DNA of 64,000 bases. Origin: Desulfobacterales bacterium (GTDB lineage Bacteria; Desulfobacterota; Desulfobacteria; Desulfobacterales; SpSt-501). The stretch is from contig JBGSTS010000020.1 in assembly GCA_041736435.1 (NCBI GenBank), forward strand, positions 119-64,118, given 5' to 3'. How positions within the stretch are numbered: position 1 is the stretch's first letter; each line of letters begins with the position of its first letter. The notes below the pieces were generated by a model. That model was not told the origin of the DNA, searched no databases, and worked only from the letters and a program-made list of their open reading frames with translations. This document shows positions 38,384-59,235 of this stretch, in pieces. The translations under genes and the position numbers were made by a program.

Positions 38384-39040
38384 TTAGTTGTCCGCGTGGC
38401 GGTAGATTTCGCCCTCGACGAGGTAGATCACCTCCTCGGCAATGTTGGTGGCGTGGTCTGAGATTCGTTCGAGGTGGCGCGAGATGAGCAGCAGGTTGAT
38501 GTAATACCCCACCCTCTCGGGCAGCTCTTTGATGGCTTGCTTGATCTGGTCGTAGGCTTCGTTCTTGATGTGGTCGACCTCGTCGTCGAGGGTGATGACC
38601 CTGTAGGCGATATCCACGTCCGTGTTGACAAGGGAGTCCAGGCTCATTTTCAGCATCCGCTGAACCTTTTCCCCCATCTCCGAGTAATCGAACATGAAGG
38701 GCGGTTTGGGGCGCTTGGCGATGATGCTCACCCGCTGGCCGATATTCACGACCTGGTCGCCGATGCGCTCGAGTTCGTTGTTGATTTTGACTACCGAGAT
38801 GATGAAACGCAGGTCAACGGCCACCGGTTGATGCAGGGCCAACACCTTCAGGCACTCCTCCTCGATCTCGACCTCCATGGCATCGACCTCCCGGTCGGCG
38901 GCGATGATGCGCTCAGCCAGCTCCGGGTCGATCTGGTCGATGGCCTTGGTAGCCGTGTGCACGAGATCCTCCACCAGGGACCCCAGGGTGAGAATGCGTT
39001 TCTTGATGCTGTCGAGCTCTCTGCGGAAGCGCTTGGTCAT
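38384..39040 (-). CDS. phoU: Phosphate signalling complex protein PhoU
   Basis: 218 aa with two PhoU repeats (...DREVDAMEVEIEEECLKVLALHQPVAVDLR... / ...DDEVDHIKNEAYDQI...ISRHLERISDHATNIAEE). Confidence 0.9.
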   Translation of the reverse strand: MTKRFRRELDSIKKRILTLGSLVEDLVHTATKAIDQIDPELAERIIAADREVDAMEVEIEEECLKVLALHQPVAVDLRFIISVVKINNELERIGDQVVNIGQRVSIIAKRPKPPFMFDYSEMGEKVQRMLKMSLDSLVNTDVDIAYRVITLDDEVDHIKNEAYDQIKQAIKELPERVGYYINLLLISRHLERISDHATNIAEEVIYLVEGEIYRHADN

Positions 39041-39137: not shown

Positions 39138-39224
39138 CCATATCATATCCGAGGGCACTGCAAAATGCCCGATTTCTGCATGGGTTGCCGGCTTCACCAT
39201 CTTGCGGCAAACGCCTCACCATAA

Positions 39225-39262
39225 ATAATCAATATTTAGTGGTTGTCTAACATCGGGCTAAC
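39225..39262 (+). promoter_or_regulatory. Candidate Pho box array (phoH side)
   Basis: ATAAT (39225), TTAGT (39236), CTAAC (39247) and CTAAC (39258), all exactly 11 bp apart. Confidence 0.5.
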
Positions 39263-39280
39263 TACATGTTGTTAATTACC

Positions 39281-39554: not shown

Positions 39555-40760
39555 GTGAAACGCATGCTGGATCAGCAGAAGAACTACATCATCGACACCA
39601 ATGTGCTGCTGGAGGACCCCAATTCGCTGGTCAAACTGAGAAACGGCAATGAGAACCACATCTTCATTCCCTACCATGTGCTTCTCGAACTGAACAAAAT
39701 CAAGAAAGACCCGAAGCTGCGCCATATCGTCGCCCGTGTGATCGAGTACCTGGTCGCCAACCCGGACGCATTCAAAGTTCTCCACTCCGACGCTGTCGCC
39801 AACCCATACGTGAACCTCGTGGACAACTTCATTCTGGACGAGATCCAATCCAGCGGCCTGGACAAGCCCATCCTGGTGACCAACGACAAGATCTTCCAAC
39901 TCCAGGCGCGGCTGCGGGGGATCACGAGCGAGATCTACAAGGAGTCGGTGCCGTTCAAGTCCGAGGCGGAATACTTTACCGGCTTCGTGGCCGGCCGAGA
40001 GGAGGCGGTGGCCAACGCCTTCATGTGGAACGACCAGGGCAAGCCCGTGTTTTTCGGGCCCGACGGGGAAAAAGTCATCGACTACCAGCACAAGGTCTGG
40101 AAGGTCGCTCCCCGCAACGTGTTTCAGAACCTGGCCATGGAGCTGATGACCCACCCGGGGATCGACATCGTCTCCGTGCAGAGCGAGGCCGGCTACGGCA
40201 AGAGCTACCTGGCGCTTGCGGCGGCTCTCTATCTCGTGCTCGAACGCAAGGCCTACCAGAAGATCTACGTTATCAAGCCCACCATCGAGATCGGCCAAAA
40301 GCTCGGCTATCTCCCCGGCCGACTCGAAGAGAAGATGGAGCCTTACACACGCTACATCGCCGACCTGCTTGCAAAGCTTCACCGGCTGCGGCCCGCTAAC
40401 AAGGTCTTCGTCGAGGCAGACGCCTACCCGCCCCAGTTCAACTCCAAGATGTTCGAGATTCTGCCTCTGGCGTACATCCGGGGCATGAACATCGACAACG
40501 CCGTGGTTATCATCGACGAGATGCAGAACATGGCCCGCTCGGAGTGCCGCGCACTGCTCTCCCGCATGGGGGAGGGGGTGAAGTGCCTGTGCCTTGGGGA
40601 CACCCGCCAGGTGGACAACCCCTATCTCAACCAGGAAAACAACGGGTTGAACTGGGTGGTCAAGAAATTCAAGGGCAGCCGGATCTACGCCCACATCGTG
40701 CTGAAAGGGGATAAATCCCGCGGCCCCATCACCGATCTGGTCATTTCCACCGGACTCTAA
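39555..40760 (+). CDS. PhoH-family ATPase with an N-terminal PIN domain (YlaK-like)
   Basis: KNYIIDTNVLLEDPNSL is a PIN domain. ...SEAGYGKSYLALAAAL... is a P-loop. ...VIIDEMQNM... is Walker B. ...GDTRQVDNPYL... is also present. The more likely start is the ATG at 39564, with AGAGG upstream. Confidence 0.85.
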   Translation: MKRMLDQQKNYIIDTNVLLEDPNSLVKLRNGNENHIFIPYHVLLELNKIKKDPKLRHIVARVIEYLVANPDAFKVLHSDAVANPYVNLVDNFILDEIQSSGLDKPILVTNDKIFQLQARLRGITSEIYKESVPFKSEAEYFTGFVAGREEAVANAFMWNDQGKPVFFGPDGEKVIDYQHKVWKVAPRNVFQNLAMELMTHPGIDIVSVQSEAGYGKSYLALAAALYLVLERKAYQKIYVIKPTIEIGQKLGYLPGRLEEKMEPYTRYIADLLAKLHRLRPANKVFVEADAYPPQFNSKMFEILPLAYIRGMNIDNAVVIIDEMQNMARSECRALLSRMGEGVKCLCLGDTRQVDNPYLNQENNGLNWVVKKFKGSRIYAHIVLKGDKSRGPITDLVISTGL

Positions 40761-40958: not shown

Positions 40959-42833
40959 TCAGCCTGCGTGGTGCCTCTGCGTTTCAGGCACAGGGGGCGG
41001 GGATCCGCTTTCGGCGCAGGCCCCGTGGCAGGCCATCAGCGCGGCGACCCCCGCTTCCCCCATGTAGCGTTCAAGGGTCTTGCGGTCGGTCTGAAGCAGG
41101 TCCACCACGATCAGTCCGTCCATGACGTTGCCGAAATCCCGGTCGATGTTGAACCCCAGCAGCTGCCCGCCCAAGTTGAGATAGTGCCGCAACAGAACCG
41201 GGACCTCGCGCTTCTGGAATTCGATGTCGGCAATCACCGCACAAACCTCCTTGAAATCCTGTAAATGGAGCGTTTTACCGGATTGGGCGCATCCGGGTAT
41301 GCGGATGGGGGCGATTTTGGCCGGCCGCCGTGGCCGGACCATGAGAGAGAGGTCCTTCGCCTGACTGTGCTGAAGCAGGGTAGTTGCGATCAGGCGCCGC
41401 GATAAATCGCTGTAGTCGCGGCTGATGCTGACCGGTCCGAAGAGCCGCCGATACTGAGGTTGGCGGGCGATGAAACTGCCGATGCCTTTCCACAGGAGCA
41501 GCAGGGGGGCATAGGAGCGCTGATATTCCGGACGGACGAAGGAGCGGCCCAGCTCCAGCGCGGACCCCAGCCTTTTAAAAAATTGCGCCTGGGTGTGAAA
41601 CAGGGTAGTGGTGTAGAGGCCTTTCCGGCCGAATCGACTCAACAAAATATCGGTTCGGCCGAGGCGGTAGGCACCGACAATTTCGGATGCGGCCTCGTTC
41701 CAGACAAACAGATGCAGGTAGTGAGGATCGAATCGGTCCAGGTCTAAAGGCTTCCCGGTCCCCTCGGACGCCGCCCGGAACGAGAGTTCCCGCAGACGGC
41801 CGATCTCTTGCAATAGATTGGGTATTTGCCCAGCCTCAGCCTGCCACACGGAAAAATCACCGCTCTGCGCCAGGCGCTGCCAGGCAGGCAGGCGCTCGAT
41901 CTCGCGGCGACAGACATCCGGGTCCTGGGGGATAGCCAGCGGCTGCTCCCTGGGCACGTGAGGCATTTTTTCGATCGCGGCCGTCCGGATCCCGGCTGAC
42001 GGTTTGAATCCCAGAATGAGGGTCCTCCAACGCAGGTACTCCACCCGTCGTGAATCATCGGCGTAGCGTTGAATCCAGCGAAACGGAATGGGGGCCCCGA
42101 TTTTGACCTCGATCGTCTTGCGCTCCTTGTTGATCAACTCCCTCGCCAGCAGAGCCGTACGCAGGCGCGGGTGGATCATGCCGGCGGCATGGAAGACAAT
42201 GCCGTTGCGGCCTTTCACGAAAACCGGAAGAACCGCAGCCCGAGTCCTGCGGGCAATGAGGCCGGCGGCCGGGCTCCAGGCGCTGTCGGCAATCTCGCAG
42301 CTCGCTAATTTGAAATGCGAGACTTCACCGGCGGGAAAAACGAGAAGCATGCCTCCGTCGTTTACCCAGCGCAGGGCCGCCCGGATCGACCCGGTATTGC
42401 TGCGGGCCGATCCGGGCCGGTTGAACGGGTCGACCGGGATGGTCAGGCGTCGAAGCTGAGGGATGCGGTTCAGCATGAAGTTGGCCATGATTTTCAGATC
42501 CGGCCGAACGGACATCAGCAGATCGGCTAGGATAATCCCCTCGATCCCTCCGAAAGGGTGATTGGCAACCACCACCAAAGACCCCGTGCGGGGTATCTGA
42601 TCGATTTCATGCAGGCTGGGCTCGCAGCGAACACCCATTTCGGACAGCAAGGCGTGCATGAAGCGTTTCGGCTCCTTGACGTGGGCCACCCGATCATAAA
42701 GCATGGCGCACCGGGTGAGCCCAAGAACGTGCTCGATCGGCCGGAGCCCGCGGGCGGCCCATCGACTTGTTTTGGATTCAGGCAAATCCGGTAAAATCGA
42801 AAAAATGGGTTTGTGTGAAACAGTCGTCTCCAT
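40959..42833 (-). CDS. Bifunctional acyltransferase with a PlsC-type O-acyltransferase domain and an OlsB-like GNAT N-acyltransferase domain (OlsF-like aminolipid synthase)
   Basis: The N-terminal half has VVANHPFGGIEG and ...LLVFPAGEVSH... (lysophospholipid acyltransferase blocks). The C-terminal half has ...FRAASEGTGKPLDLDRFDPHYLHLFVWNEAASEIVGAYRLG..., the hemolysin/OlsB-like N-acyl-amino-acid synthase signature. Confidence 0.7.
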   Translation of the reverse strand: METTVSHKPIFSILPDLPESKTSRWAARGLRPIEHVLGLTRCAMLYDRVAHVKEPKRFMHALLSEMGVRCEPSLHEIDQIPRTGSLVVVANHPFGGIEGIILADLLMSVRPDLKIMANFMLNRIPQLRRLTIPVDPFNRPGSARSNTGSIRAALRWVNDGGMLLVFPAGEVSHFKLASCEIADSAWSPAAGLIARRTRAAVLPVFVKGRNGIVFHAAGMIHPRLRTALLARELINKERKTIEVKIGAPIPFRWIQRYADDSRRVEYLRWRTLILGFKPSAGIRTAAIEKMPHVPREQPLAIPQDPDVCRREIERLPAWQRLAQSGDFSVWQAEAGQIPNLLQEIGRLRELSFRAASEGTGKPLDLDRFDPHYLHLFVWNEAASEIVGAYRLGRTDILLSRFGRKGLYTTTLFHTQAQFFKRLGSALELGRSFVRPEYQRSYAPLLLLWKGIGSFIARQPQYRRLFGPVSISRDYSDLSRRLIATTLLQHSQAKDLSLMVRPRRPAKIAPIRIPGCAQSGKTLHLQDFKEVCAVIADIEFQKREVPVLLRHYLNLGGQLLGFNIDRDFGNVMDGLIVVDLLQTDRKTLERYMGEAGVAALMACHGACAESGSPPPVPETQRHHAG

Positions 42834-43051: not shown

Positions 43052-43078
43052 CTAACCGCAGGTTAACTTACAGCTAAC
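43052..43078 (+). promoter_or_regulatory. Candidate Pho box array (divergent OlsF-like / lysE intergenic region)
   Basis: CTAAC (43052), TTAAC (43063) and CTAAC (43074) at an 11-bp period. The last unit is 88 nt upstream of the lysE-family ATG. Confidence 0.55.
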
Positions 43079-43165: not shown

Positions 43166-43798
43166 ATGGATCAGCTTTTGTTTTGCAAGGGGGTCGCCCT
43201 GGGCCTTTTGTTGTGTGCCCCTCTCGGCCCGGTCGGTATCCTCTGCATCCGGCACACGCTGGTGGACGGCCGGCTGGCAGGCATGCTTGCGGTGCTGGGC
43301 GCTGCTATGGTGGATGCGGTCTACTGCCTCATTGCGGCCCTCGGCATTACGCTGGTCGCGGGATTTTTAGAACAAGGCCGCTCCTGGATTCAGCCTCTCG
43401 GCGGGTTGGTGCTGGCCTTTGTCGGGTTTCATCTGACATGCGAGCCCTCCGGCGCGCGCCGTGTTTCCGGGACACGCGGCTATAACCTCATGGGGGCCTT
43501 CCTATCGACGTTTTTGCTGATGCTTTCCAACCCGCTGCCGATCCTGATCATCAGCGCAGCCATTTCCGCCATCAGCGGACCCGCGTGGGTGTCGATGCCG
43601 ACCGCGGCGCTCGTGTTGATGGCCGGCGTGTTCTGCGGTTCAATCCTGTGGGCGCCGATCCTCATCATCGGCGCATCCATGCTCAAACCCCTGCTGAAGC
43701 GCGAGCACCTGCGGGTCCTGCAGCGGGCCAGCGGCATCGCACTTCTAATCTGCGGGTTTTTCCTCGGTATCTCACCTTTTTTCCGCCACCCCGGTTAA
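43166..43798 (+). CDS. LysE/RhtB-family amino-acid exporter
   Basis: 210 aa with six hydrophobic helices and the N-terminal ...APLGPVGILCIRHTL... typical of LysE-type translocators. Confidence 0.8.
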   Translation: MDQLLFCKGVALGLLLCAPLGPVGILCIRHTLVDGRLAGMLAVLGAAMVDAVYCLIAALGITLVAGFLEQGRSWIQPLGGLVLAFVGFHLTCEPSGARRVSGTRGYNLMGAFLSTFLLMLSNPLPILIISAAISAISGPAWVSMPTAALVLMAGVFCGSILWAPILIIGASMLKPLLKREHLRVLQRASGIALLICGFFLGISPFFRHPG

Positions 43799-43810
43799 CT
43801 TCATCAACAT

Positions 43811-43848
43811 TTAGCGGTGTTTTAATCCGGGACTAACAGCATGTTGAT
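43811..43848 (+). promoter_or_regulatory. Candidate Pho box array (PHP-glycosyltransferase promoter)
   Basis: TTAGC (43811), TTAAT (43822), CTAAC (43833) and TTGAT (43844) at an 11-bp period. The array ends 50 nt upstream of the ATG at 43899. Confidence 0.5.
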
Positions 43849-43898: not shown

Positions 43899-45794
43899 AT
43901 GATGAAAGCGGACCTGCATGTGCATTCGCGGCACTCGACCCGGCCCTCCCAGTGGTTCCTGCAAAAGATCGGCTGCCCGGAAAGCTTTACCGACCCGCTG
44001 CAGCTCTACCACATTGCCCGGCGGCGGGGCATGACGCTGGTGACCATCACGGATCACAACAAGATCGACGGTGCCCTCGAGATCGCTCATCTTCCCGGGG
44101 CCTTCGTGAGCGAAGAGGTGACCGCCTATTTTCCCGAAGACGGCTGCAAGGTCCATGTGCTGGTCTACCGCATCACCGAGGCGCAGCACGCGGAGATCCA
44201 GAAAATCCGCACCGACGTTTACGACCTCCTCCGCTACCTAAAGGATGCGGCCATACCCTGTGCCCTGGCCCACCCGATGTATGCGGTCAACGATCGGTTG
44301 ACGGTGGCCCACATCGAAAAGCTCTTGCTGTTGTTCCGCAATTTCGAATTGAACGGCGACAGCAACCCGGAGTCCAACCGCAGCCTGGAGACGGTGCTGT
44401 CAGCCTTGACCCCGGCTGACATTGAGCGTCTGGCGAACACCCATGGCATCTCCCCGCTCTGGCCGGAACCCTGGCGCAAAAATCTGATCGGCGGCTCCGA
44501 CGACCACAGCTCGCTCAACATCTCCCGCAACTTCACCCAGGTGGAGGGCGCCGGGAGCGTCGATGCGTTCCTGGCCGGGATAGAGTCCGGGCAGGCACGG
44601 GTGGTCCAGCGGCCCTCCTCGCCGCAGGCCATGGCTCACAACCTCTACAGCATCGCCTACCAGTTTTATCGTCAGAAACTCGGGTTGAGCCGGGATGCAC
44701 CGCAGCATTTCCTGCTGCGCTTCATCGACCGGTGCCTGCGGCTAACGGACGGGTCTGAATCGGGGTTTCTGGCACGGCTGCATTTTCTGTGGCAATACCG
44801 CCGGATCCGCAAAATACAGGGCAGCATTCCCGGCCCCCTGGTGGAGCTCCTGCAGCAGGAGACGTCGCGGTTGCTGGAAGAGGATCCGGCGCTTTTCGAT
44901 CTGCCCGAGGCGGGCGACTGGATGTCCAAGCGGATGGAGGAGCGTTGGTTCGACTTCATGGACAGGATGTCCAACCGGATCCTGCTCGGATGCGCCAACC
45001 ATCTCCTGGGCCATGTGTCGGGGGCCAACCTGTTCAACATTTTTCAAACCATCGGCTCGGCCGGAGGGTTCTGCACGCTGCTGACCCCCTATGCGATGGC
45101 GTTTTCCCACTACAACCGCCAACGGCAGTTCAGCCAAGCCGTGTTGGAACGGTTTGGGCATGCCGTGCCTGACGATCCGACGCCATCGCAGGCGTGCGCT
45201 GTGTTTGCGGACACTCAAGCCGACGGGCAGGAATCGATCCGAACGCATGCTCGCAGCCATCCGGGGCGGCGGTGCGCGCTGTTGACCTGCGATACCGGGG
45301 TTGAATCCGAGGCCGTCAAGCGTTTTGAGCCCATCGGGGTCTACGAATTCGACGAGCAGCCGCACTACCGGCTGGTCTACCCGCCGGTCCTGGAGATGCT
45401 CGACTACTGCTACACCGGCCGATTCAGCCGTGTGCACCTGGCCACCACCGGCCCGGCCGGTTTGGCCGGCCTGTTCATCGGTCGCTTTCTGAAGCTGCCG
45501 CTGGAGGCCGACTTCAGCGACCTGCTGCCGCGCATGGCGCGGGAGATCACCCGGGATGGGTTCATCGAGGAGCTCTGCTGGCGCTACACGGTGTGGTTCT
45601 ACAGCCAGATGAATACGGTTTACGTCTCCTCCGGAGCCCAGCTGGCCGAGCTGGCCCAGCACGGTATTCCCCGCGCAAAACTCAGGGTGGCACCGCAGCC
45701 GACGGATTCGGCATCGCTCTGGGGCGATGCCCGCACAGCCCCCGCCGGTGCTGCCTCCCGGCGGCTGCGGCGGCAGGCCGGCGCCCGCATCTGA
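43899..45794 (+). CDS. PHP-domain phosphoesterase fused to a GT-B (GT4-like) glycosyltransferase N-terminal half. The C-terminal nucleotide-sugar half appears to be missing.
   Basis: MKADLHVHSRHS...VTITDHNKIDG is a PHP metal-binding motif. The C-terminal ~200 aa resembles a GT4 N-domain (...RVHLATTGPAGLAGL...VYVSSGAQLAELAQHGIPRAKLRV). The ORF then ends in low-complexity sequence, where RGVD...EX7E would be expected. Confidence 0.65.
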   Translation: MMKADLHVHSRHSTRPSQWFLQKIGCPESFTDPLQLYHIARRRGMTLVTITDHNKIDGALEIAHLPGAFVSEEVTAYFPEDGCKVHVLVYRITEAQHAEIQKIRTDVYDLLRYLKDAAIPCALAHPMYAVNDRLTVAHIEKLLLLFRNFELNGDSNPESNRSLETVLSALTPADIERLANTHGISPLWPEPWRKNLIGGSDDHSSLNISRNFTQVEGAGSVDAFLAGIESGQARVVQRPSSPQAMAHNLYSIAYQFYRQKLGLSRDAPQHFLLRFIDRCLRLTDGSESGFLARLHFLWQYRRIRKIQGSIPGPLVELLQQETSRLLEEDPALFDLPEAGDWMSKRMEERWFDFMDRMSNRILLGCANHLLGHVSGANLFNIFQTIGSAGGFCTLLTPYAMAFSHYNRQRQFSQAVLERFGHAVPDDPTPSQACAVFADTQADGQESIRTHARSHPGRRCALLTCDTGVESEAVKRFEPIGVYEFDEQPHYRLVYPPVLEMLDYCYTGRFSRVHLATTGPAGLAGLFIGRFLKLPLEADFSDLLPRMAREITRDGFIEELCWRYTVWFYSQMNTVYVSSGAQLAELAQHGIPRAKLRVAPQPTDSASLWGDARTAPAGAASRRLRRQAGARI

Positions 45795-45851
45795 CACCCA
45801 CCGATCCCCAGCCCGATCGGCTGCAGGGCCTGAGATGCGGCTCATAAAAAA

Positions 45852-45878
45852 ATAACCCTGCCTTAACCGAGGGGTAAC
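45852..45878 (+). promoter_or_regulatory. Candidate Pho box array (PAP2/glycosyltransferase promoter)
   Basis: ATAAC (45852), TTAAC (45863, within CTTAACCG) and GTAAC (45874) at an 11-bp period. The array ends 40 nt upstream of the ATG at 45918. Confidence 0.55.
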
Positions 45879-45917
45879 GATGCGAGGGTATCATCGGCCC
45901 ATTCCAAGGAGAATCCT

Positions 45918-46445
45918 ATGCGCTATTTGGTCGATAGCATCACGCGTTGGGACACCCAGTGGTTCAGCGCTATTTTTGGATTGGGCGGAAAACGGCTCCT
46001 ATCCCTTCTGATGCCGTGGGTGTCGCGCAGCGGCGACGGCTATTTCTACCCGGTGCTGGCTTTGGGTCTGATAGCGATCGATGATGCGCAGGGAAGGCGC
46101 TTCCTGACGGCGGCCCTGGCGGCATTTGCCCTTGAACTGCCGGCATACAAGCTGATCAAGAACTGCGTCAAGCGGGATCGGCCCACCGACAAACTGCCGG
46201 CCGTATGCGGCCGCATTGTCCCAAGCGATCGGTTCAGTTTTCCTTCAGGCCACGCGGCGGGCGCCATGCTGATCGCAACCCTTCTTGCCCACATGGTGCC
46301 GGTCGTTTTTCCGCTGGCCGCCGCCTGGGCTCTATCGGTTGGCTTTTCGCGGGTCTATCTGGGGGTTCATTACCCCACCGATGTCCTGGCGGGAATGGCC
46401 ATCGGCATGCTGAGCGCCCTCTTCGGCATTGCTCTGGCGGCTTGA
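45918..46445 (+). CDS. PAP2-family (phosphatidic acid / lipid phosphate) phosphatase
   Basis: All three PAP2 motifs are present: KNCVKRDRP, FPSGHA and SRVYLGVHYPTD. It is a membrane protein. Confidence 0.85.
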   Translation: MRYLVDSITRWDTQWFSAIFGLGGKRLLSLLMPWVSRSGDGYFYPVLALGLIAIDDAQGRRFLTAALAAFALELPAYKLIKNCVKRDRPTDKLPAVCGRIVPSDRFSFPSGHAAGAMLIATLLAHMVPVVFPLAAAWALSVGFSRVYLGVHYPTDVLAGMAIGMLSALFGIALAA

Positions 46446-50159: not shown

Positions 50160-51332
50160 TTAAGGGCTGCGACGCTGTCGGGTGCGCCGGGGAGAGCGGT
50201 CAAGCATTGCCAAGACCTTGACCGCGACCTCATACGCCGCCTGCGGCCGGGCGATGCGCCGGGCATTGGCCTTGAGCCGAGCCAGCCGACGCGGCGAAGA
50301 GAGCAGCGCATTCAATTTATAGTTCAGGGTCGCCAGATGGCCGACCTTTACCGCCGCACCGCTTTCCAACAGGAAATCGGCGTTGCGGCTCTCCTGGCCG
50401 GGGATCGGATTGACGATCAGCATCGCACCCCCGCAGCATAAAACCTCCGCCGATGTCAATCCGCCGGGTTTGGAAATCACCACGTCCGCCGCGGCCATGA
50501 GCTCATCGATCGCCTCCGTGAAGCCGACGATCGTGACACGGTGGTGCGGTGCGGCGGGTGCCCGGTTCAACCGCTCCCGGAGCGCATCATTGCGCCCGCA
50601 CACCACCACAATCTCCACGGCGACGTTCAGTGCCAGCAAGCTGAAAAAAATCTGTTCGATCGGACCGACCCCGAACCCGCCTGAAAGCAGGAGCAGGATC
50701 GGCCGCTCCCCCTTAAGCCCCTGGGTCCTGAGGCAGCGGAGTCGGTCTTTGCGTCTGCTGAACACCGGGTGAACGGGAATGCCGCTGACCGTGATATCCC
50801 GCGCTGGTACCCCCCAATAGGCGAGATTCGCCGCGCTCTCCTCCGTGGCCGCGAAGTAGTGATCGCATGGGCGTTGGACCCACATCCGGTGCGTCATGAA
50901 ATCGGTAGTGACGGTCACCTGCCGCACATTGATTTTTCCCGCGGTCCGCAGCGAACCGATGATCTCCGCCGGTAGAAAATGAGTGTTGACCACCACGTCC
51001 CAGCTCTCTGATTCCAAAAGCTTCAGGAAAGGTTTGAGATTCAAGCGCTGCAGGGCAATCCGAAATCGATCCGCCTCCAGCTCCTGAGGGCGGTCCAAGA
51101 GGTCGTAGACATAGCCGAGCAAGTGGGGGGCCCGGCGGGCAACATCGAGGTAGCCCTTGCCGTATATTCTGCGGAAGGCGGAGCTGGCCAGGCTCAGGAC
51201 GTCCACATTCTTCAGCATCAGGCCGGGGGCAATTTCCTGCAGGGCCAGCTCGATGGCTTCCGCCGCACGCACGTGGCCGGCCCCGACGGATGCCGAAAGG
51301 ATGAGAATGCGTTTGGGAATTTGTTGGCGCAA
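50160..51332 (-). CDS. GT28 diacylglycerol glycosyltransferase (MGDG-synthase / UgtP-like)
   Basis: ...ILILSASVGAGHVRAAEAI...FRRIYGKGYLDVARRAPHLLGYVYD... is an MGDG_synth N-domain. ...ISKPGGLTSAEVLCCGGAMLIVNPIPGQESRNADFL is a GT28 C-domain. Confidence 0.8.
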   Translation of the reverse strand: MRQQIPKRILILSASVGAGHVRAAEAIELALQEIAPGLMLKNVDVLSLASSAFRRIYGKGYLDVARRAPHLLGYVYDLLDRPQELEADRFRIALQRLNLKPFLKLLESESWDVVVNTHFLPAEIIGSLRTAGKINVRQVTVTTDFMTHRMWVQRPCDHYFAATEESAANLAYWGVPARDITVSGIPVHPVFSRRKDRLRCLRTQGLKGERPILLLLSGGFGVGPIEQIFFSLLALNVAVEIVVVCGRNDALRERLNRAPAAPHHRVTIVGFTEAIDELMAAADVVISKPGGLTSAEVLCCGGAMLIVNPIPGQESRNADFLLESGAAVKVGHLATLNYKLNALLSSPRRLARLKANARRIARPQAAYEVAVKVLAMLDRSPRRTRQRRSP

Positions 51333-53003: not shown

Positions 53004-54047
53004 ATGTTGCCGTCGGTTCTTGCCCGCTTCAAATCTTTCGGACTGCTGGCCTGCGTCCTGGCACTGTTTATCGCCGCACCTTCCGCGGTGCTGGCCGCAG
53101 AGGAGATCATCGTCTACACCGCATTAGAGGATGACGAAATCCCCAAGTACCTCGCCCTCTTCAAGCAGCAGCATCCGGATATCACCGTCAAGATCGTGCG
53201 GGACTCCACCGGCATCGTCACCGCCAAGCTACTGGCTGAGAAGGCCAACCCCCAGGCCGATGTCGTCTGGGGAACGGCGGCAACCAGCCTCATGCTCTGC
53301 AAGCAGGCGGGAATGCTGGAACCCTTTGCGCCCAAGGGACTCGAGAAGGTGAAACCGCTCATGCGCGACTCCGCCAACCCGCCGGCCTGGGTGGGGATCA
53401 AGGCCTGGGAAACCGGGTTCTGCGTCAACACGATCGAATCCAAGAAGCTGAAACTGCCGGCCCCCGAATCCTTCGCCGACTTGACCAAACCGGTCTACAA
53501 GGGCCAGATTTCAATGCCCAACCCCGCCTCCTCCGGGACCGGCTTCCTGACGGTTTCCGCCGTGCTGCAGATGATGGGCGAGGCCCCGGGCTGGGAGTAT
53601 CTTGACAAGTTGCACGCCAACATCGCTCGCTACACGCACTCCGGCTCCAAGCCCTGCAAGATGGCGGGCGCCGGCGAGGTTCCGATCGGGATCTCCTTCG
53701 CCTACCGCGGGTTCATGCAGAAGCAGAAGGGCGAGCCGGTCGAGACGGTTTTCCCCAAGGAGGGCTCCGGCTGGGACGTAGAAGCCAACGCCATGATCAA
53801 GAAGGCCGCCATCAAACCGGCGGCTAAAATCTTCCTCGATTGGGCCATCAGCGAGCCGGTGATGAAGGAGTACGGCAAGATCTATCCGGTGACCGCCTAC
53901 CCGAGCGGCAACCCCATCCCCGAGGGATACCCGAAGGAGCCCGAAAAGCAGCTCGCCAAGAACGACTTCGACTGGGCCGCCAAAAACCGCGAGCGCATCT
54001 TGGCGGAATGGACCAAACGCTACGACAGCAAAAGCGAGGCCAAATAG
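53004..54047 (+). CDS. phnS: 2-aminoethylphosphonate-type ABC transporter, periplasmic binding protein (FbpA/PhnS family)
   Basis: It has a signal peptide, then [13 protein letters not shown]...PASSGTGFL.... The operon context with phnX and phnW supports the call. AAAGGAG lies upstream. Confidence 0.8.
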
Positions 54048-54066
54048 CTCCTACTGCCGCCGCTTG

Positions 54067-54093
54067 CGAGCCGGATGGCCGCCATCCGGCTCG
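54067..54093 (+). other. Intercistronic stem-loop after the binding-protein gene
   Basis: CGAGCCGGATGG-ccg-CCATCCGGCTCG, an 11-12-bp perfect stem between phnS and the ATPase gene. Confidence 0.6.
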
Positions 54094-54112
54094 GATTCGA
54101 ACGAGGACCCGT

Positions 54113-55219
54113 ATGGGCAACTCCTTTGATCTTTCGCCCTATTTAAAAGTCGCCGGCGTCACCAAAACCTTCGGGGAGTTTACCGCCCTCCAGGATGTCT
54201 CCTTCAGCGCCGAGCGCGGCGAGTTTCTGTGTGTGCTGGGCCCGAGCGGCTGCGGTAAAACCACCGTACTGCGCATCCTGGCCGGACTGGAGGTTCAGAC
54301 CGGCGGCAGCGTGCACATCGAGAACCGGGACGTCTCCGGCCTGCCGATATCCAAACGCAATGTGGGCATCGTTTTCCAGTCCTATGCTCTCTTTCCGAAC
54401 CTGACCGCAGCCCAGAACGTGGCCTACGGGTTGAAGAGCCGGCGGTCTCAAAAAGAGCGCAGCGCGCAGCGGGTGGCGGAACTGCTTGAGCTGGTCGGGC
54501 TGACAGGCATGGGTGAGAAGTACCCGGCGCAGCTGTCGGGAGGCCAGCAGCAGAGGGTGGCGCTGGCCCGCGCCATGGCCCTCTCGCCGGACCTGCTGCT
54601 ACTGGACGAGCCGTTGTCGGCGCTGGACGCCCAGGTGCGTGTCCTGCTGCGCCAGGAGATCCGCCAGCTGCAGCAGCGGCTCAAGGTGACCACCATCATG
54701 GTGACCCATGACCAGGAGGAGGCGTTGACCATGGCCGACCGCATTCTGGTCATGGACAAAGGCCGCCTGGTGCAGAGCGGGACCCCGCTTGAAATCTATG
54801 ACCGACCGGCCACCCCGTTTGTGGCCGCCTTCATCGGATCCATGAATTTTTTAGAGAACGCGGTCAAGGTGGATACGGCGGTCTACCGAATCGGCGGCTG
54901 CGACCTGCGGGTGGCAGGGGAAAACGGATCGCAGCGGCTGGCGATCGGCGGCAGCGCCACGCTCGGCATCCGACCCGAGGACATCCTGATCTGGTCCGAC
55001 CGCCGCGATGCACCCAACACGCTCCCGGCCCAAGTGGAGGCGATTGAATACCGCGGTCCGCTCTTCAGGGTGGGCCTGCGGCTGGGGCCCTGCGGCCCCG
55101 GGGCCGCGCGGGTCGAAGCCGACATCCCCTCGGAGAAGGTTCGCCGCCTGGAGCTTCGGCCGGCCGCGACGCTGCCCGTGCAGCTGCCAGAGGACCGGCT
55201 CCGCGTGTACACCGCTTAA
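54113..55219 (+). CDS. phnT: ABC transporter ATP-binding protein (PhnT-like)
   Basis: GPSGCGKTT (Walker A), [14 protein letters not shown] (signature) and LLLLDEP (Walker B). The start is MGNSFDL at 54113. Confidence 0.9.
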
Positions 55220-55223
55220 TCCG

Positions 55224-56981
55224 ATGCACGCTTCGGCCCGTCAGGCGTCACCCATTGTGACGAAGGAGCTTTTGAGCAGCCTGAGCACAGAGGCCTGGAT
55301 CTCATGGTTGCTGATCCTGCTGACGTGTGCCTGGCTTCTCGTCGTCGTGGTGCTGCCGGTCGTCCAGCTGGTGGCCAAAAGCCTGCAGGACAGCCAGGGC
55401 GGCTTCGTGGGGCTGGCCAATTACGTCGCCTATTTCAAGAACCCGGCCCTGTCGAACTCGCTGGCCAATAGCCTCTACGTGTCGGCGTCAACGACCCTTA
55501 TTTCCGTCGTGTTGGGATTCATTTTCGCTTTCGCCCTGACCCGCTCGCGCATCCCCGGCCGCGGCATCTTCAAAGGCATCGCCATGATGCCTCTTTTCGC
55601 CCCGACGCTCCTGAACGGGATCGCACTGGTCTACCTCTTCGGCCGAAAGGGCCTGATCACGGGGGGGTTCTTCGGCACCTTCGCCGGCGTCGACATCCAG
55701 GTTTACGGGACGGTCGGCATCATCATTTCCGAGGCGATCTACACTTTTCCCCAGGCTGTGTTGATCCTCTCCATCGCTCTGAACCTTGCCGATGCCAGGC
55801 TCTACGAGGCTTCGGAGTCTTTGGGTGCCCGCTGGCTGCGCACCTTCTTTTGCGTCACCCTGCCCGGCATCAAATACGGACTGCTCAGCGCGGTGTTCGT
55901 CTGCTTCACCCTGGCCTTCACCGATTTCGGCGCTCCCAAGGTGATCGGCGGCAACACCAACATCCTCGCCACGGACATCTACAAGCAGGTCATCGGCCAA
56001 CAGAACTTCACCATGGGGGCCGTGGTCAGCATCGTGCTCCTGGTCCCGACCGTGGTCGCCTTTGTCGTGGATCGCATCGTGCAGCGCCGCCAGGTGGCCA
56101 TGATCGCCGCCCGGTCGGTCCCGCTGCAGCCCAAGCTCAGCTTGCTGCGGGATGGCGCCTTTTTTGTATTTTGCGCTCTAGTGGCAGCGGCGATCCTCGG
56201 TTTCTACGCCACCGCCCTTTTCGCCTCGCTGGTCAAGGTCTGGCCCTACCATCTGGAACTGGGGCTATGGCACTATCATTTCACCGGTACCGGCGGCGGT
56301 GGCTACCCGGCCTTCTGGAACAGCATCCGGATGAGCCTTTATTCTGCGGCCGCTGGCACGGTCATTATTTTTGCAAGCGCGTACCTGATCGAAAAGAGCC
56401 GCAAGCTGAATCTCCTGCGCCGGTCCGCCTATTTTCTCTCCATTCTGCCCCTCGCCCTGCCCGGGCTCGTGATCGGGCTGGCCTACATCTTTTTCTTCAA
56501 CCCCCGGGGCTGGGAATTCTTCGGGTGGTGGGTGCCAAACCCGTTCAGTTTCCTATACGCCACCATGGCCATCCTGGTCATCAGCAACATCGTGCATTTC
56601 TACACCGTCGGTTTCCTGACCGCCACAACCGCTTTGAAACAGCTGGACGACGAATTCGAGACCGTGTCCGCATCCATGGGGGTCCCGTTCTACAAAACCT
56701 TTACCCGGGTGACCGTGCCGGTCTGCCTGCCGGCCGTGCTGGAGATCGGCATGTACTTTTTCGTCAACTCCATGGCGACCGTGTCGGCGGTCATTTTTCT
56801 CTACTCGGCGGACATCCCCTTGGCCTCCGTGGCGGTGGCTAACATGGACGATGCCGGCGACACGGCCCCCGCGGCCGCCATGTCGGTGATGATCGTGCTT
56901 GCCAATATCGGGGTTCGCGTGATTTTCGGGGGATTGACCCGCAGCATCAAACGGCGCAGTCAGGCCTGGGCCAACGGCTGA
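55224..56981 (+). CDS. phnU: Fused double ABC permease (PhnU/PhnV-like)
   Basis: 585 aa with about 12 helices and two EAA-like loops ([15 protein letters not shown] / [15 protein letters not shown]). Confidence 0.85.
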
Positions 56982-57013
56982 GCCGCAACCGCCTGCGAGC
57001 AGGGAGGCGCATC

Positions 57014-57847
57014 ATGACGACTGTTGTGCGTAAACCGCTCCACACCGGTCCACTGCGCGCGGTAGTGCTGGACTGGGCGGGAACGGCCGTCGACTACGGC
57101 TGCCTCGGGCCTGCGGCCGTTTTTGTGGAGGTTTTCAAGAAGTTCGGCATCGCGGTCACCACGGCCGAGGCCCGGCAGTTTATGGGGCTGAAGAAAATCG
57201 ACCACATCCGCAGCATGTGCCGGCTTCCGGCGGTGGTTGCCGCGTGGCAATCCGTTCACGGGTGGGCACCCGATGAGAGCGATGTCGACGCGCTTTACGC
57301 CGAAACCGAACCGATGATGGTTTCCGCGATCGCCGGCCATGCCGAGCCCATCCCGGGGCTTCTCCCCTTCGTGCAGGCCATGCGGGAGAAGGTTATCAAG
57401 GTTGGCTCCTCGACCGGCTACACACGGGCCATGATGGAGGTCATGGTGCCGGAGGCCCGCCGCAGGGGATACTTTCCGGATGCCGTGGTCACCTCTTCGG
57501 ATGTGCCGGATGGGCGGCCCTATCCCTGGATGTGCTACCTGAACGCCATTCAACTTCAGGTTTACCCCATGCAGGCCATGGTGAAAATCGGCGACACGCC
57601 AAGCGATATCTACGAAGGGCTCAACGCCGGGATGTGGACCATTGGCCTGACCAAGTCCGGCAACCTGCTGGGGCTGCCGGCTGAAGCGTGCGATCGTCTG
57701 GAGTCGAACGAGCTCTCTTGCCGTCTTGCCTCCGCCGAGCGCGACCTGAATGCAGCCGGCGCGCATTACACGGCGGAGGGCATCTGGGCGGTGCTGCCGA
57801 TCATCGAAGAGATCAACGCCCGCCTTGCAGCCGGGGAGCAGCCCTGA
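57014..57847 (+). CDS. phnX: Phosphonoacetaldehyde hydrolase (phosphonatase)
   Basis: ...AVVLDWAGTAVDYGCLGPA... is the HAD motif I with the PhnX-specific context. It is followed by ...KIGDTPSDIYEGLNAGMWTIG.... Confidence 0.9.
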   Translation: MTTVVRKPLHTGPLRAVVLDWAGTAVDYGCLGPAAVFVEVFKKFGIAVTTAEARQFMGLKKIDHIRSMCRLPAVVAAWQSVHGWAPDESDVDALYAETEPMMVSAIAGHAEPIPGLLPFVQAMREKVIKVGSSTGYTRAMMEVMVPEARRRGYFPDAVVTSSDVPDGRPYPWMCYLNAIQLQVYPMQAMVKIGDTPSDIYEGLNAGMWTIGLTKSGNLLGLPAEACDRLESNELSCRLASAERDLNAAGAHYTAEGIWAVLPIIEEINARLAAGEQP

Positions 57848-58098
57848 GCCGACGGCAATGGGTTCCTGAGGCCGGTGGCCGGCGCAGGTCCGTCTGGGAG
57901 GTGGTCCGCGTGACAGTGGACATGGGTCGCTCCGAAACGGGGGCTCAGGTTCAAGGTGTCCGATGGCAGCTTCTCTACCCGCACCCCGCCGCTGACCATC
58001 GAACGCACGGAGCTGGACCGTGCCCTGGACATCCTGGATGACGCCCTCCAGGAAGTTGAAACCGGGACGACTACCCGAATCGACTAAAAGGAGTCACC

Positions 58099-59235
58099 AT
58101 GGAATTCCCGGAACTGCCCGAAAATCCCTACCTGCTCCTCACCCCGGGGCCCTTGACCACTACGGCGAGCGTCAAAGCCGTGATGCTGCGCGACTGGTGC
58201 ACCTGGGACGAGGATTACAACCGGCTCGTCCAGGCGATCCGCCGCGAGCTTACGGCACTGGCCACGGCCGAGCCGGGTTTCACCACCGTACTGATGCAGG
58301 GCAGCGGCACCTTCGGGGTGGAAGCGGTTGTGACCACGGCCGTACCGGAGGGGGGCAAGCTGTTGGTGCTCGCCAACGGCGCCTACGGCCGCCGGATCGC
58401 CCACATCGCGCAGCGTGGCCGCATCGCGGTCCAGGTTCTGGACAGCGGTGAAACCTCCCCGCCGGATATCGACCGGATGTCGGCCGTCCTTCAGAAAGAG
58501 CCGTCCATCACTCACGTGGCGGTTGTCCACTGTGAAACCACCACCGGCATGCTGAACCCGCTCGAGGCCATCGGCCGCGTGGTCAAACCGCTCGACCGGG
58601 TCTTGATCGTGGATGCCATGAGCAGCTTCGGCGGCATCCCCCTGGATGCGGTCGCCATTGGAGCGGATTATCTCATCAGCAGCGCCAACAAATGCATCCA
58701 GGGGGTGCCGGGCTTCTCCTTCGTGGTGGCCCGCCGGCAGGAGCTTGAAAAAACAAAGGGCCGTGCCCGCTCGCTTAGCCTGGACCTATACGATCAGTGG
58801 GCGACCATGGAGAACCACCCCGGCAAGTGGCGCTTCACCTCGCCCACCCATGTGGTGCACGCCTTTTATCAGGCCCTCCAAGAGCTCAGGGCCGAAGGCG
58901 GTGTCGCTGCCCGCAATGCGCGCTATCGAAAAAACCGGGATTCCCTGGTCGACGGCATGCAGGCCATGGGTTTTACGCCGCTGCTGTCGCCTGCCTTTCG
59001 CTCCCCTATTATCACGGCGTTTCACAGCCCAGCGAACCCGGCTTATGATTTCAGGAGATTCTACGACCTGCTGAAAAAGCAGGGGTTTGTGATCTACCCC
59101 GGAAAAGTCACCGAGCTCGATACATTTCGCATCGGCACCATCGGCGATGTTCATCCCGCGGACATCGAGCGTCTTCTAAAGGCGGTCGATGCTTCCATGT
59201 ACTGGAAACAATCTCGTTATTCCCCCGGCAAATGA
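58099..59235 (+). CDS. phnW: 2-aminoethylphosphonate--pyruvate transaminase
   Basis: ...[32 protein letters not shown]... and ...[16 protein letters not shown]... (PLP lysine). It is a class-V aminotransferase. Confidence 0.9.

Follow-up and report, generated by a model that had tools for sequence, protein, structure and literature searches.

A conserved shortened PHP-GT4 protein without a donor-binding half in a Pho-type locus of a Desulfobacterales bacterium

What use is half of a glycosyltransferase (GT)? The question is raised by a gene in a 64,000-nucleotide stretch of a Desulfobacterales genome (GenBank assembly GCA_041736435.1, contig JBGSTS010000020.1, positions 119 to 64,118 of the forward strand), hereafter called the window; its features are listed in Table 1. 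The gene encodes a protein of 631 amino acids (aa) in which a preliminary description had recognised a PHP-type phosphoesterase joined to the N-terminal half of a family 4 glycosyltransferase (GT4). Two explanations were offered there, a decayed gene or a protein that works with a separate GT half or module, and a comparison was drawn with the two-gene PlcP-Agt module of lipid renovation. Our own reading, to which we give about an even chance, is that of a conserved shortened member of a PHP-helical-GT4 family that acts as a phospholipid phosphoesterase, has no transferase activity, and feeds neighbouring glycosyltransferases.

The motifs HVHSRHS, TDHN, and GIPRAKLRV lie at residues 7-13, 51-54, and 589-597, and 34 further residues follow the last of them before the stop. 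An AlphaFold2 (AF2) model based on 117 aligned relatives has a mean predicted local distance difference test score (pLDDT) of 85.2 and a predicted template modelling score (pTM) of 0.85. It comprises a PHP barrel (residues 1-240), helices (242-418), one Rossmann domain (433-597), and a disordered end (603-631), and the three retained parts are modelled as one compact unit. For the helical middle region there was no Pfam match and no usable match in the ESM Atlas; folded alone, it gives a pLDDT of only 66.7, and the highest VIA Z among 48,161 chains, 6.0, does not rise above the noise level for helical models. The pairing of a PHP phosphoesterase with a GT4 N-half was described correctly, because the PHP part matches PHP structures and the Rossmann part matches only N-halves of GT-B enzymes; the AF2 model and the conservation of the PHP motifs agree.

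At VIA Z 12-14, residues 430-601 correspond to the N-halves of GT-B enzymes and to no more of them (WbnH, MshA, HepE, BshA, and sucrose-phosphate synthase, SPS), with Z 13.9 for WbnH and 13.7 for MshA. They superpose on the N-terminal Rossmann domains of retaining GT4 enzymes (MshA, BshA, HepE, WbnH, PimA type), but the window protein lacks the C-terminal Rossmann domain and EX7E donor site of these enzymes. The Pfam GT4 N-domain models are sub-threshold (PF13439, residues 462-603, 26.2 bits against a cut-off of 28.5; PF13579, 25.6 bits), and the C-half model PF00534 has no match in the protein. In alignment with full-length relatives of ~817 aa, the window protein stops exactly at the interdomain boundary, after which the relatives run on with RGVD..FHP and the EX7E half (PF00534), as the preliminary description had expected of a complete enzyme. 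In addition, the Gly-rich loop that follows strand 1, which carries the motif FTDTFYxVNGVA in long forms, has unrelated residues in the window protein. Two defining features of an active GT4/GT-B enzyme, the second Rossmann domain with EX7E and the Gly-rich loop, are thus missing, which leaves the protein unable to bind a nucleotide sugar as GT-B enzymes normally do. No glycosyltransferase activity is expected, because the C-terminal Rossmann half that binds the nucleotide sugar is lost.

This half was not found nearby or elsewhere in the genome. A whole-genome search with an 817-aa relative matches residues 1-611 at the locus and reveals no C-half remnant in any frame, in line with the earlier statement that no alternative frame restores it. 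No close copy of residues 612-817 was found elsewhere in the genome, where other GT4 proteins show only 25-34% identity, and the 19 PF00534 matches of the genome all fall in frames of 345-700 aa, which are as long as complete enzymes. Because searches with both PF00534 and the 817-aa relative found no detached half, the C-half appears to be gone, neither displaced nor frame-shifted; the genome is 94.7% complete, and a detached C-half is accordingly to be read as not found rather than absent.

The shortened architecture is shared. By length, the closest relatives in the database form two classes, ~612-673 aa (GT4 N-domain only) and ~817 aa, and in alignment all short forms end no more than a few tens of residues past the last N-domain strand. 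The window protein is 47-56% identical to the ~817-aa relatives over 95-100% of its length; given this collinear similarity and its nested position in the family tree, we place it in a PHP-helical-GT4 family of Desulfobacterota. A tree of 117 database relatives (53 short, 64 long), built on shared columns only and without the partial sequences P0044, P0064, and P0109, puts 49 of the 53 short forms, including that of the window, on one side, as a core of 48 (97% support) plus one long-branched row (79%, weak). A phmmer search of 1.84 billion cluster representatives (50% identity) gave 496 matches at E <= 1e-30. Among the best 150 of these, 86 reach the end of the N-domain, with 0-79 residues left in 26, 180-259 in 60, and 80-179 in none. 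The short architecture is therefore a discrete class, since random contig-end fragments would not leave such a gap. Of 121 genomes sampled from the order, 38 bear the family and six of the 38 have the short type, namely all three genomes of the window's genus and genomes of three other genera. Overall, 14 other species-level genomes share the short architecture, with 46-86% identity. One of the six (G050) has a long and a short family member on two contigs, and in another genome of the sample (G087) the gene is split into two adjacent ORFs (open reading frames) that cover residues 1-419 and 433-804 (G087:C33:14964-17379).

Selection has acted on the parts that remain. Ratios of nonsynonymous to synonymous substitution (dN/dS) were computed by the Nei-Gojobori method for nine short-form and three long-form pairs; the short windows comprise 33 codons, and their ratios are rough. 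Among short forms, dN/dS ranges over 0.07-0.22 for the PHP domain, 0.12-0.22 for the helical region, and 0.075-0.35 for the GT4 N-half core. In the beta1-loop (residues 430-462), it is 0.20-0.90 in short forms versus 0.03-0.18 in long forms, and in the tail it is 0.28-1.7. These values indicate purifying selection on all three retained parts, with relaxation in the donor loop and the tail, whose residues 603-631 have a pLDDT below 50 and vary in length and sequence among short forms. A contig of a related population (run X4) carries insertions of one and two bases, three positions apart and together adding one codon, within the GT4 N-half at window positions 45292-45295; they are probably strain variation.

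How often was the donor half lost? For a tree of 70 genome-derived proteins, 11 of 80 related loci were dropped, seven because they run off contigs (L006, L007, L026, L038, L042, L058, L062), three because they are broken or odd (L048, L060, L074), and one for its 1012-aa frame (L050). On this tree the short/long label needs two changes: a 12-member short clade is sister to a five-member long clade, and a three-member short clade (L022, L023, L036) lies among other long forms. In the database tree, three further short lineages of metagenome proteins (P0052; P0097; P0057 with P0060) are closely nested within the long sister clade. For P0097, an in-frame deletion inside the protein is suggested by its tail, which aligns with the very C-terminal end of long forms. 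Taken together, the trees make recurrent loss of the C-half likely.

The PHP domain, by contrast with the GT half, looks complete. Structure comparison finds the distorted (beta/alpha)7 barrel of the PHP superfamily in residues 1-240, with 3e38_B as the best match (VIA Z 17.3; root-mean-square deviation 2.8; 192 aligned) and nine further PHP entries at Z 14.4-16.9, including 3o0f (16.9), 2anu (16.9), EndoQ (16.6), Cv1693 (14.7), and RNase AM (14.7); PsfC was also matched. Foldseek aligns the domain with the PHP domain of RNase AM (7ug9) at E 9.7e-7, and NCBIfam offers only a weak CehA/McbA metallohydrolase match (30.6 bits). Across 117 sequences, D52, H53, E72, E73, H86, H97, H125, D201, D202, and H203 are invariant, and D5, H7, and H9 are nearly so. 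The metal-ligand motifs H7-x-H9, H53, E73, H86, H125, and D201-x-H203, which we tentatively assign to metal sites on the family pattern of HxH at strand 1, then His, Glu, His, and His, and finally DxH, are thus invariant or at least 90% conserved, and a trinuclear-metal active site appears intact. The domain shares its fold (~180-190 residues) and metal-ligand motifs with PHP proteins of the TrpH/YciV type (RNase AM, 7ug9/9etk; Cv1693, 2yb1) and with 3e38, 3o0f, and 2anu. It differs from them in that they are only 17-22% identical and soluble and none of them is fused to a GT half, and the known activities of the TrpH/YciV type are on nucleotides or RNA. The preliminary description would have given up a lipid role if the domain clustered with histidinol phosphatases or DNA-polymerase-type PHP proteins unrelated to lipids; no histidinol phosphatase is found among the nearest solved relatives, and neither is a lipid enzyme. 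Homology does not decide between a lipid and a nucleotide substrate, because identity to characterised PHP enzymes is 22% at most.

A second, complete glycosyltransferase accompanies the short forms. Genes for a PAP2 phosphatase and an MJ1255-type GT lie downstream of all 15 complete short forms, including that of the window, and near only four of 55 long forms (L009, L010, L013, and, in part, L012), which belong to the sister clade of the main short clade; the flanks covered vary in length between loci, and in those of the other long forms the module was not found. The MJ1255-type GT has both domains of a GT-B enzyme (PF13528 covers residues 1-298 of 346), and the PAP2 protein has weak NCBIfam matches to the SepP, PgpB, and LpxE types. 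Such a pattern would be expected if the transferase half was lost where a second glycosyltransferase was already available, but the two to five loss events are too few for a meaningful statistical test of the association. Of the earlier suggestion that the protein works with a separate GT half or module, the half has not turned up in the genome searches, and a module, comprising a complete GT and PAP2, has done so at every complete short-form locus. A gene resembling phosphoenolpyruvate (PEP) synthase is convergent with the module and occurs in 13 of the 15 module-bearing short-form loci as well as in L009, L010, and L013.

The locus also has shared promoter elements. A 50-nt element upstream of the target gene is conserved across related loci of very different GC content and, in spacing and type of repeat, seems to resemble the Pho boxes of Bacillus and cyanobacteria. 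With a position weight matrix (PWM) built from 11 orthologous loci, the window excluded, this site scores 58.5 bits, first of 8.3 million genome positions. The second-ranked site lies in the same locus (Table 1), and the next matches reach 26.4 and 26.3 bits. The latter (C107:65767, minus strand, contig coordinates outside the window) is a plausible third copy. Against a chance expectation of ~0.9, the 4.18-Mb genome has two matches to the strict pattern TAAC-N6-8-TAAC-N6-8-TAAC, and both are in this locus. One array is the probable start of an operon of LysE and the PHP-GT4 gene; the other, at 45853-45878, is the Pho-like array that had been reported behind the ORF, and related loci (e.g., L002, L008, L022, L023, L036, L080) likewise have TAAC repeats upstream of PAP2.

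Table 1. Features of the target gene and its surroundings, in window coordinates
Feature	Position	Strand	Remarks
PhoU	38384..39040	-	PF01895 160.3 bits
Second copy of the 50-nt element, phoU/phoH2 intergenic region	39224..39273	+	PWM 46.9 bits, genome rank 2
PIN-PhoH (PhoH2-like) gene	39555..40760	+	NF053827 158.6 bits, sub-threshold
OlsF-like bifunctional ornithine-lipid synthase	40959..42833	-	NF052615 394.8 bits (cut-off 620); PF13444, PF19576
TAAC x3 direct-repeat array upstream of LysE	43053..43078	+	one of 2 strict genome matches
LysE-type exporter gene	43166..43798	+	PF01810 68.4 bits; directly upstream of target gene
50-nt promoter element	43799..43848	+	three TTTAG/TTAAT/CTAAC-type direct units, 11-bp spacing; upstream of target
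Target ORF	43899..45794	+	631 aa; PHP phosphoesterase + helical part + GT4 N-half
PHP-fold metal-dependent phosphoesterase domain	43899..44621	+	residues 1-241; AF2 pLDDT mostly >90
Helical middle region	44622..45188	+	residues 242-430; Gly-rich hydrophobic helix ~378-394
N-terminal (acceptor-side) GT4/GT-B Rossmann half	45189..45692	+	residues 431-598; donor-loop motif degenerate
Variable 33-residue tail and stop codon	45693..45794	+	in place of ~190-residue donor-binding half
TAAC x3 direct-repeat array upstream of PAP2	45853..45878	+	other of 2 strict genome matches
PAP2 lipid phosphatase, 175 aa	45918..46445	+	PF01569 76.1 bits; first gene of downstream module
MJ1255/VC2487-family GT-B glycosyltransferase, 346 aa	46466..47506	+	TIGR00661 203.2 bits (cut-off 195.9); PF13528 140 bits
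PEP-synthase-like phosphotransferase (ATP-grasp PPDK_N + mobile His domain), 800 aa	47503..49905	-	PF01326 143.8, PF00391 78.5 bits
UgtP/MGDG-synthase-like GT28 diacylglycerol glycosyltransferase	50160..51332	-	PF06925 73 bits

Along the window, the order of genes is PhoU, PhoH2, OlsF, LysE, the target, PAP2, the MJ1255 GT, the PEP-synthase-like gene, the UgtP-like GT, and a phnS2-type gene. The presence of PhoU, PhoH2, OlsF-like, UgtP-like, and phnS2 genes bears out the setting implied by the preliminary description, a phosphate-starvation island of lipid replacement. The UgtP-like GT28 matches NF010135 (diglucosyl-diacylglycerol synthase) at 214.9 bits, below the cut-off of 500, and has counterparts in L001, L003, L004, and L006. 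In the flanks of the 80 related loci, PhoH2 occurs in 23, PhoU in 16, and either in 31. A LysE gene lies near the target homologue in 12 of the 80, where neither its upstream position nor its strand is constant. Among 25 module-less long forms, scanned for up to two neighbours per side (97 ORFs), PhoH2-type genes occur at five loci, PstS-type binding proteins at four, pst permeases at one, PhoU at one, and OlsF-like genes at two. With PhoH2, PhoU, PstS, pst, and OlsF genes recurring nearby, the family as a whole is linked to genes of phosphate starvation.

Several further genes recur in these neighbourhoods. The PIN-PhoH gene lies between the PHP-GT4 gene and PAP2 in many related loci (e.g., L005, 10061-11254; L009, 11009-12208), and in the window it differs in place, 3 kb upstream of the target and adjoining phoU. 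A gene resembling PEP synthase or rifampicin phosphotransferase is found in L001-L005, L008-L010, L013, L016, L017, L019, L022, L033, and L080; that of the window follows the UgtP-like GT, with which it shares its strand. Window positions 53004-59235 hold a cluster for uptake and breakdown of 2-aminoethylphosphonate (2-AEP), in which a phnS2-type 2-AEP binding protein (477 bits, above cut-off) is followed by an ABC ATPase, a permease, and ORFs that we take, from their N-terminal sequences, to be phnX- and phnW-like. Among the 25 module-less long forms, a radical-SAM protein (~420-470 aa) adjoins eight (L028, L029, L046, L047, L049, L051, L059, L068). Phosphatidylserine-decarboxylase-like genes (four loci) and Methyltransf_24 genes (six loci) recur just upstream (L021, L025, L041, L043, L056, L073, L075) and might belong to another head-group pathway.

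The long forms very probably connect the family to a phenotype. A Desulfovibrio long form retrieves an 816-aa glycosyltransferase of Oleidesulfovibrio alaskensis whose cluster includes ABB40406.1 of strain G20 ("glycosyl transferase group 1"), and the window protein is 44% identical to ABB40406 over residues 1-604. We take the CutC protein of G20 to be Dde_3282, and the resulting offset between accessions and locus tags puts ABB40406 at Dde_3612/3613, one off. The accession of CutC is ABB40076 (PMC4453576). A transposon mutant of Dde_3613 ("glycosyltransferase group I, Agt homolog") forms no glycolipids, i.e., neither monoglycosyldiacylglycerol (MGDG) nor glycuronic acid diacylglycerol (GADG), under phosphate limitation and grows poorly, and more than 50 deltaproteobacterial genomes have Dde_3613 homologues at E < 1e-100 (Bosak et al. 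2016, PMC5193443). Because the product names match and the accession offset fits, ABB40406 is very probably Dde_3613. The text of that paper contains none of the terms PHP, phosphoesterase, PlcP, or N-terminal, and the supplementary files searched call the gene just "glycosyltransferase gene". The accession ABB40406 itself was found in no open-access paper. Agt and the window protein have in common the order of PHP domain, helical region, and GT4 N-half and the phosphate-starvation context, with OlsF named as a partner in PMC5193443. They differ in that the window protein has no PF00534 donor-binding half and a degenerate donor loop, so that, on these structural grounds, the short form itself is not expected to be the MGDG/GADG synthase.

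The comparison with PlcP-Agt can be restated in this light. PlcP is a calcineurin-type metallophosphoesterase (PF00149). The window domain has a PHP fold instead and would be an analogue, not a homologue; it has no PF00149 match, and when the protein was scanned against Pfam at E <= 0.01, only GT4 N-domain models came up. In Alphaproteobacteria and SAR11, a phosphoesterase reportedly frees diacylglycerol and a GT4 glycosylates it under control of phosphate starvation (Sebastian et al. 2016, PMC4796936), which is the likeness. The two activities are separate genes there, whereas here they are fused in long forms and, in short forms, the transfer step is handed to other genes. The analogy is therefore apt in the sense of "works like", because the 816-aa relative of G20 is very probably the Agt required for glycolipids, and it fails as a statement of homology. 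In function, the PlcP-Agt pair comes closest; in descent, the Agt-type PHP-GT4 family of sulfate reducers does.

We propose the following scheme for the phosphoesterase reading. An ancestral deletion would have removed the C-terminal Rossmann half that binds nucleotide sugars, and the acceptor or lipid side of the GT4 would have been kept as a structural and membrane- or lipid-docking part. Upon phosphate starvation, the gene may be switched on through direct-repeat sites with 11-bp spacing, putatively of the PhoB type and in common with phoU/phoH2. The protein would then dock at the cytoplasmic face of the membrane by its GT half and hydrophobic helix, and the PHP site would hydrolyse head-group phosphoesters of phospholipids in the manner of a phospholipase C or a phosphatidate phosphatase, releasing phosphorus and diacylglycerol. 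The neighbouring MJ1255-type and UgtP-like GTs could glycosylate the diacylglycerol, while OlsF would make ornithine lipid in parallel.

Several observations weigh against this scheme. Pfam barely detects the PHP domain (PF02811, E 0.46), and no homology ties it to any lipid enzyme: its nearest solved relatives, 14-22% identical, are RNase AM/TrpH, the pAp (adenosine 3',5'-bisphosphate) phosphatase Cv1693, EndoQ, PsfC, and PHP proteins without known function. The adjacent PAP2 could itself make diacylglycerol from phosphatidate, with the PHP domain doing another job. Residues 361-403 hold the highest 19-residue Kyte-Doolittle windows of the protein, and these reach only 1.0-1.2, below the hydrophobicity typical of a membrane-spanning helix; we can only infer membrane docking, because the helix at ~378-394 is too weakly hydrophobic for a transmembrane segment. 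The genome has three PstS-like (PBP_like_2) genes, and neither the 50-nt PWM nor the strict TAAC array finds a site upstream of them; for this reason, the element may be the target of a local regulator rather than part of the general Pho regulon. An approximately unbiased (AU) test retains a single origin of the 15 genome-derived short forms (log-likelihood difference 36.2, p 0.076), so that recurrent loss draws partly on metagenome proteins. Lastly, the identity of ABB40406 with Dde_3613 depends on matching product names and on an offset that assumes Dde_3282 for CutC and comes out one off, and OlsF of G20, sought to check the locus-tag spacing, was not among the best 120 matches.

Of the other explanations, the most serious, though we consider it unlikely, is that the PHP domain acts on nucleotides, either clearing the uridine diphosphate or other nucleoside diphosphates (UDP/NDP) released by glycosyltransferases or hydrolysing pAp or RNA ends for phosphorus. 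The closest PHP structures of known activity point that way (RNase AM, 7ug9 and 9etk; Cv1693 with AMP, 2yb1; EndoQ), as do one relative annotated as "predicted metal-dependent phosphoesterase TrpH" and the PIN-PhoH RNA enzyme gene in the neighbourhood of 23 of the 80 loci. Identity to those enzymes is just 14-22%, however, and most top matches are of no known function; moreover, fusion of the PHP domain to a hydrophobic helical region and to the lipid-side half of a lipid-type GT4 is constant. Continued purifying selection on that half after loss of the nucleotide-binding half is hard to reconcile with a role on soluble nucleotides only. Alternatively, the PHP domain could dephosphorylate a phosphorylated glycolipid or sugar-phosphate intermediate of the GT, which in short forms the MJ1255 GT would supply. 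A GT4-phosphatase fusion of this logic exists in sucrose-phosphate synthase, whose N-halves are among the structural matches (6kih, 6ldq), and the best NCBIfam model for the GT part of long forms is N-acetylglucosaminyl-phosphatidylglycerol synthase (130 bits, cut-off 480). We nonetheless rate this idea as distinctly improbable: we know of no phosphorylated intermediate for MGDG or GADG, and the two lipids reported in PMC5193443 to be lost in the G20 mutant need no dephosphorylation if they are made from diacylglycerol.

Two further explanations concern the GT half rather than the PHP domain. If the protein were a split glycosyltransferase that pairs in trans with a separate donor-binding half or with the MJ1255-type GT, the conserved core of its N-half and the glycosyltransferase gene that always lies downstream would be accounted for. 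We think this very improbable, as every PF00534 match of the genome sits in a complete-sized frame, residues 612-817 have no close copy, the MJ1255 GT is already a two-domain GT-B enzyme, and the donor loop of the N-half is degenerate and under relaxed selection. A recent pseudogene or an assembly artefact, with a frameshift or indel near 45690-45720, could be suspected from a protein that ends 34 residues past a domain boundary in a low-confidence, fast-evolving tail. This suspicion is scarcely credible given the same architecture in 14 other species-level genomes and throughout the genus, dN/dS well below 1 in three retained domains, and the missing C-half remnant. Contigs from two other studies span 44106-45782 and 45625-46200 without gaps and show no such indel. 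Pseudogene and assembly error are therefore rejected on dN/dS, discrete length classes, genus-wide occurrence, and gapless contigs. The preliminary description had itself held that truncation would be refuted by widespread homologues of ~630 aa; such forms are widespread, fixed in the genus (three of three genomes), and under purifying selection, and its decayed-gene explanation falls with them.

A broader version of the phosphoesterase reading can be put forward tentatively, and on balance we doubt it. The PHP domain would be an unrecognised class of phospholipase C or phosphatidate phosphatase, long Agt proteins would cut and glycosylate in one polypeptide, and short forms would be cutters only, with a dead GT half for lipid or membrane docking, while the module of PAP2, MJ1255-GT, and PEP-synthase-like genes might make a different, hitherto undescribed phosphorus-free lipid. 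In searches of open-access papers and bioRxiv, we found no description of the family's PHP domain, its short forms, or the MJ1255-type module. Likewise, the open literature, with subscription journals outside its scope, held nothing relevant on a PHP-glycosyltransferase lipid enzyme or on the MJ1255/PF13528 family.

In anoxic sediments and water columns, glycolipids in place of phospholipids serve as a marker of phosphorus limitation, and in sulfate reducers the sole genetic handle on this replacement is "agt" (Bosak et al. 2016, PMC5193443). Counting "agt homologues" in metagenomes over-predicts glycolipid synthase, because ~30% (26 of 86) of the relatives assessed in cluster representatives and 53 of 117 in the database tree are without the sugar-transferring half. 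The locus offers a clean case from nature in which one half of a GT-B fold has been retained as a non-catalytic part, and the PAP2/MJ1255-GT/PEP-synthase-like module is a good candidate for a new lipid pathway. Finally, the Agt family carries an intact, unstudied phosphoesterase domain that could be the missing step that generates diacylglycerol.

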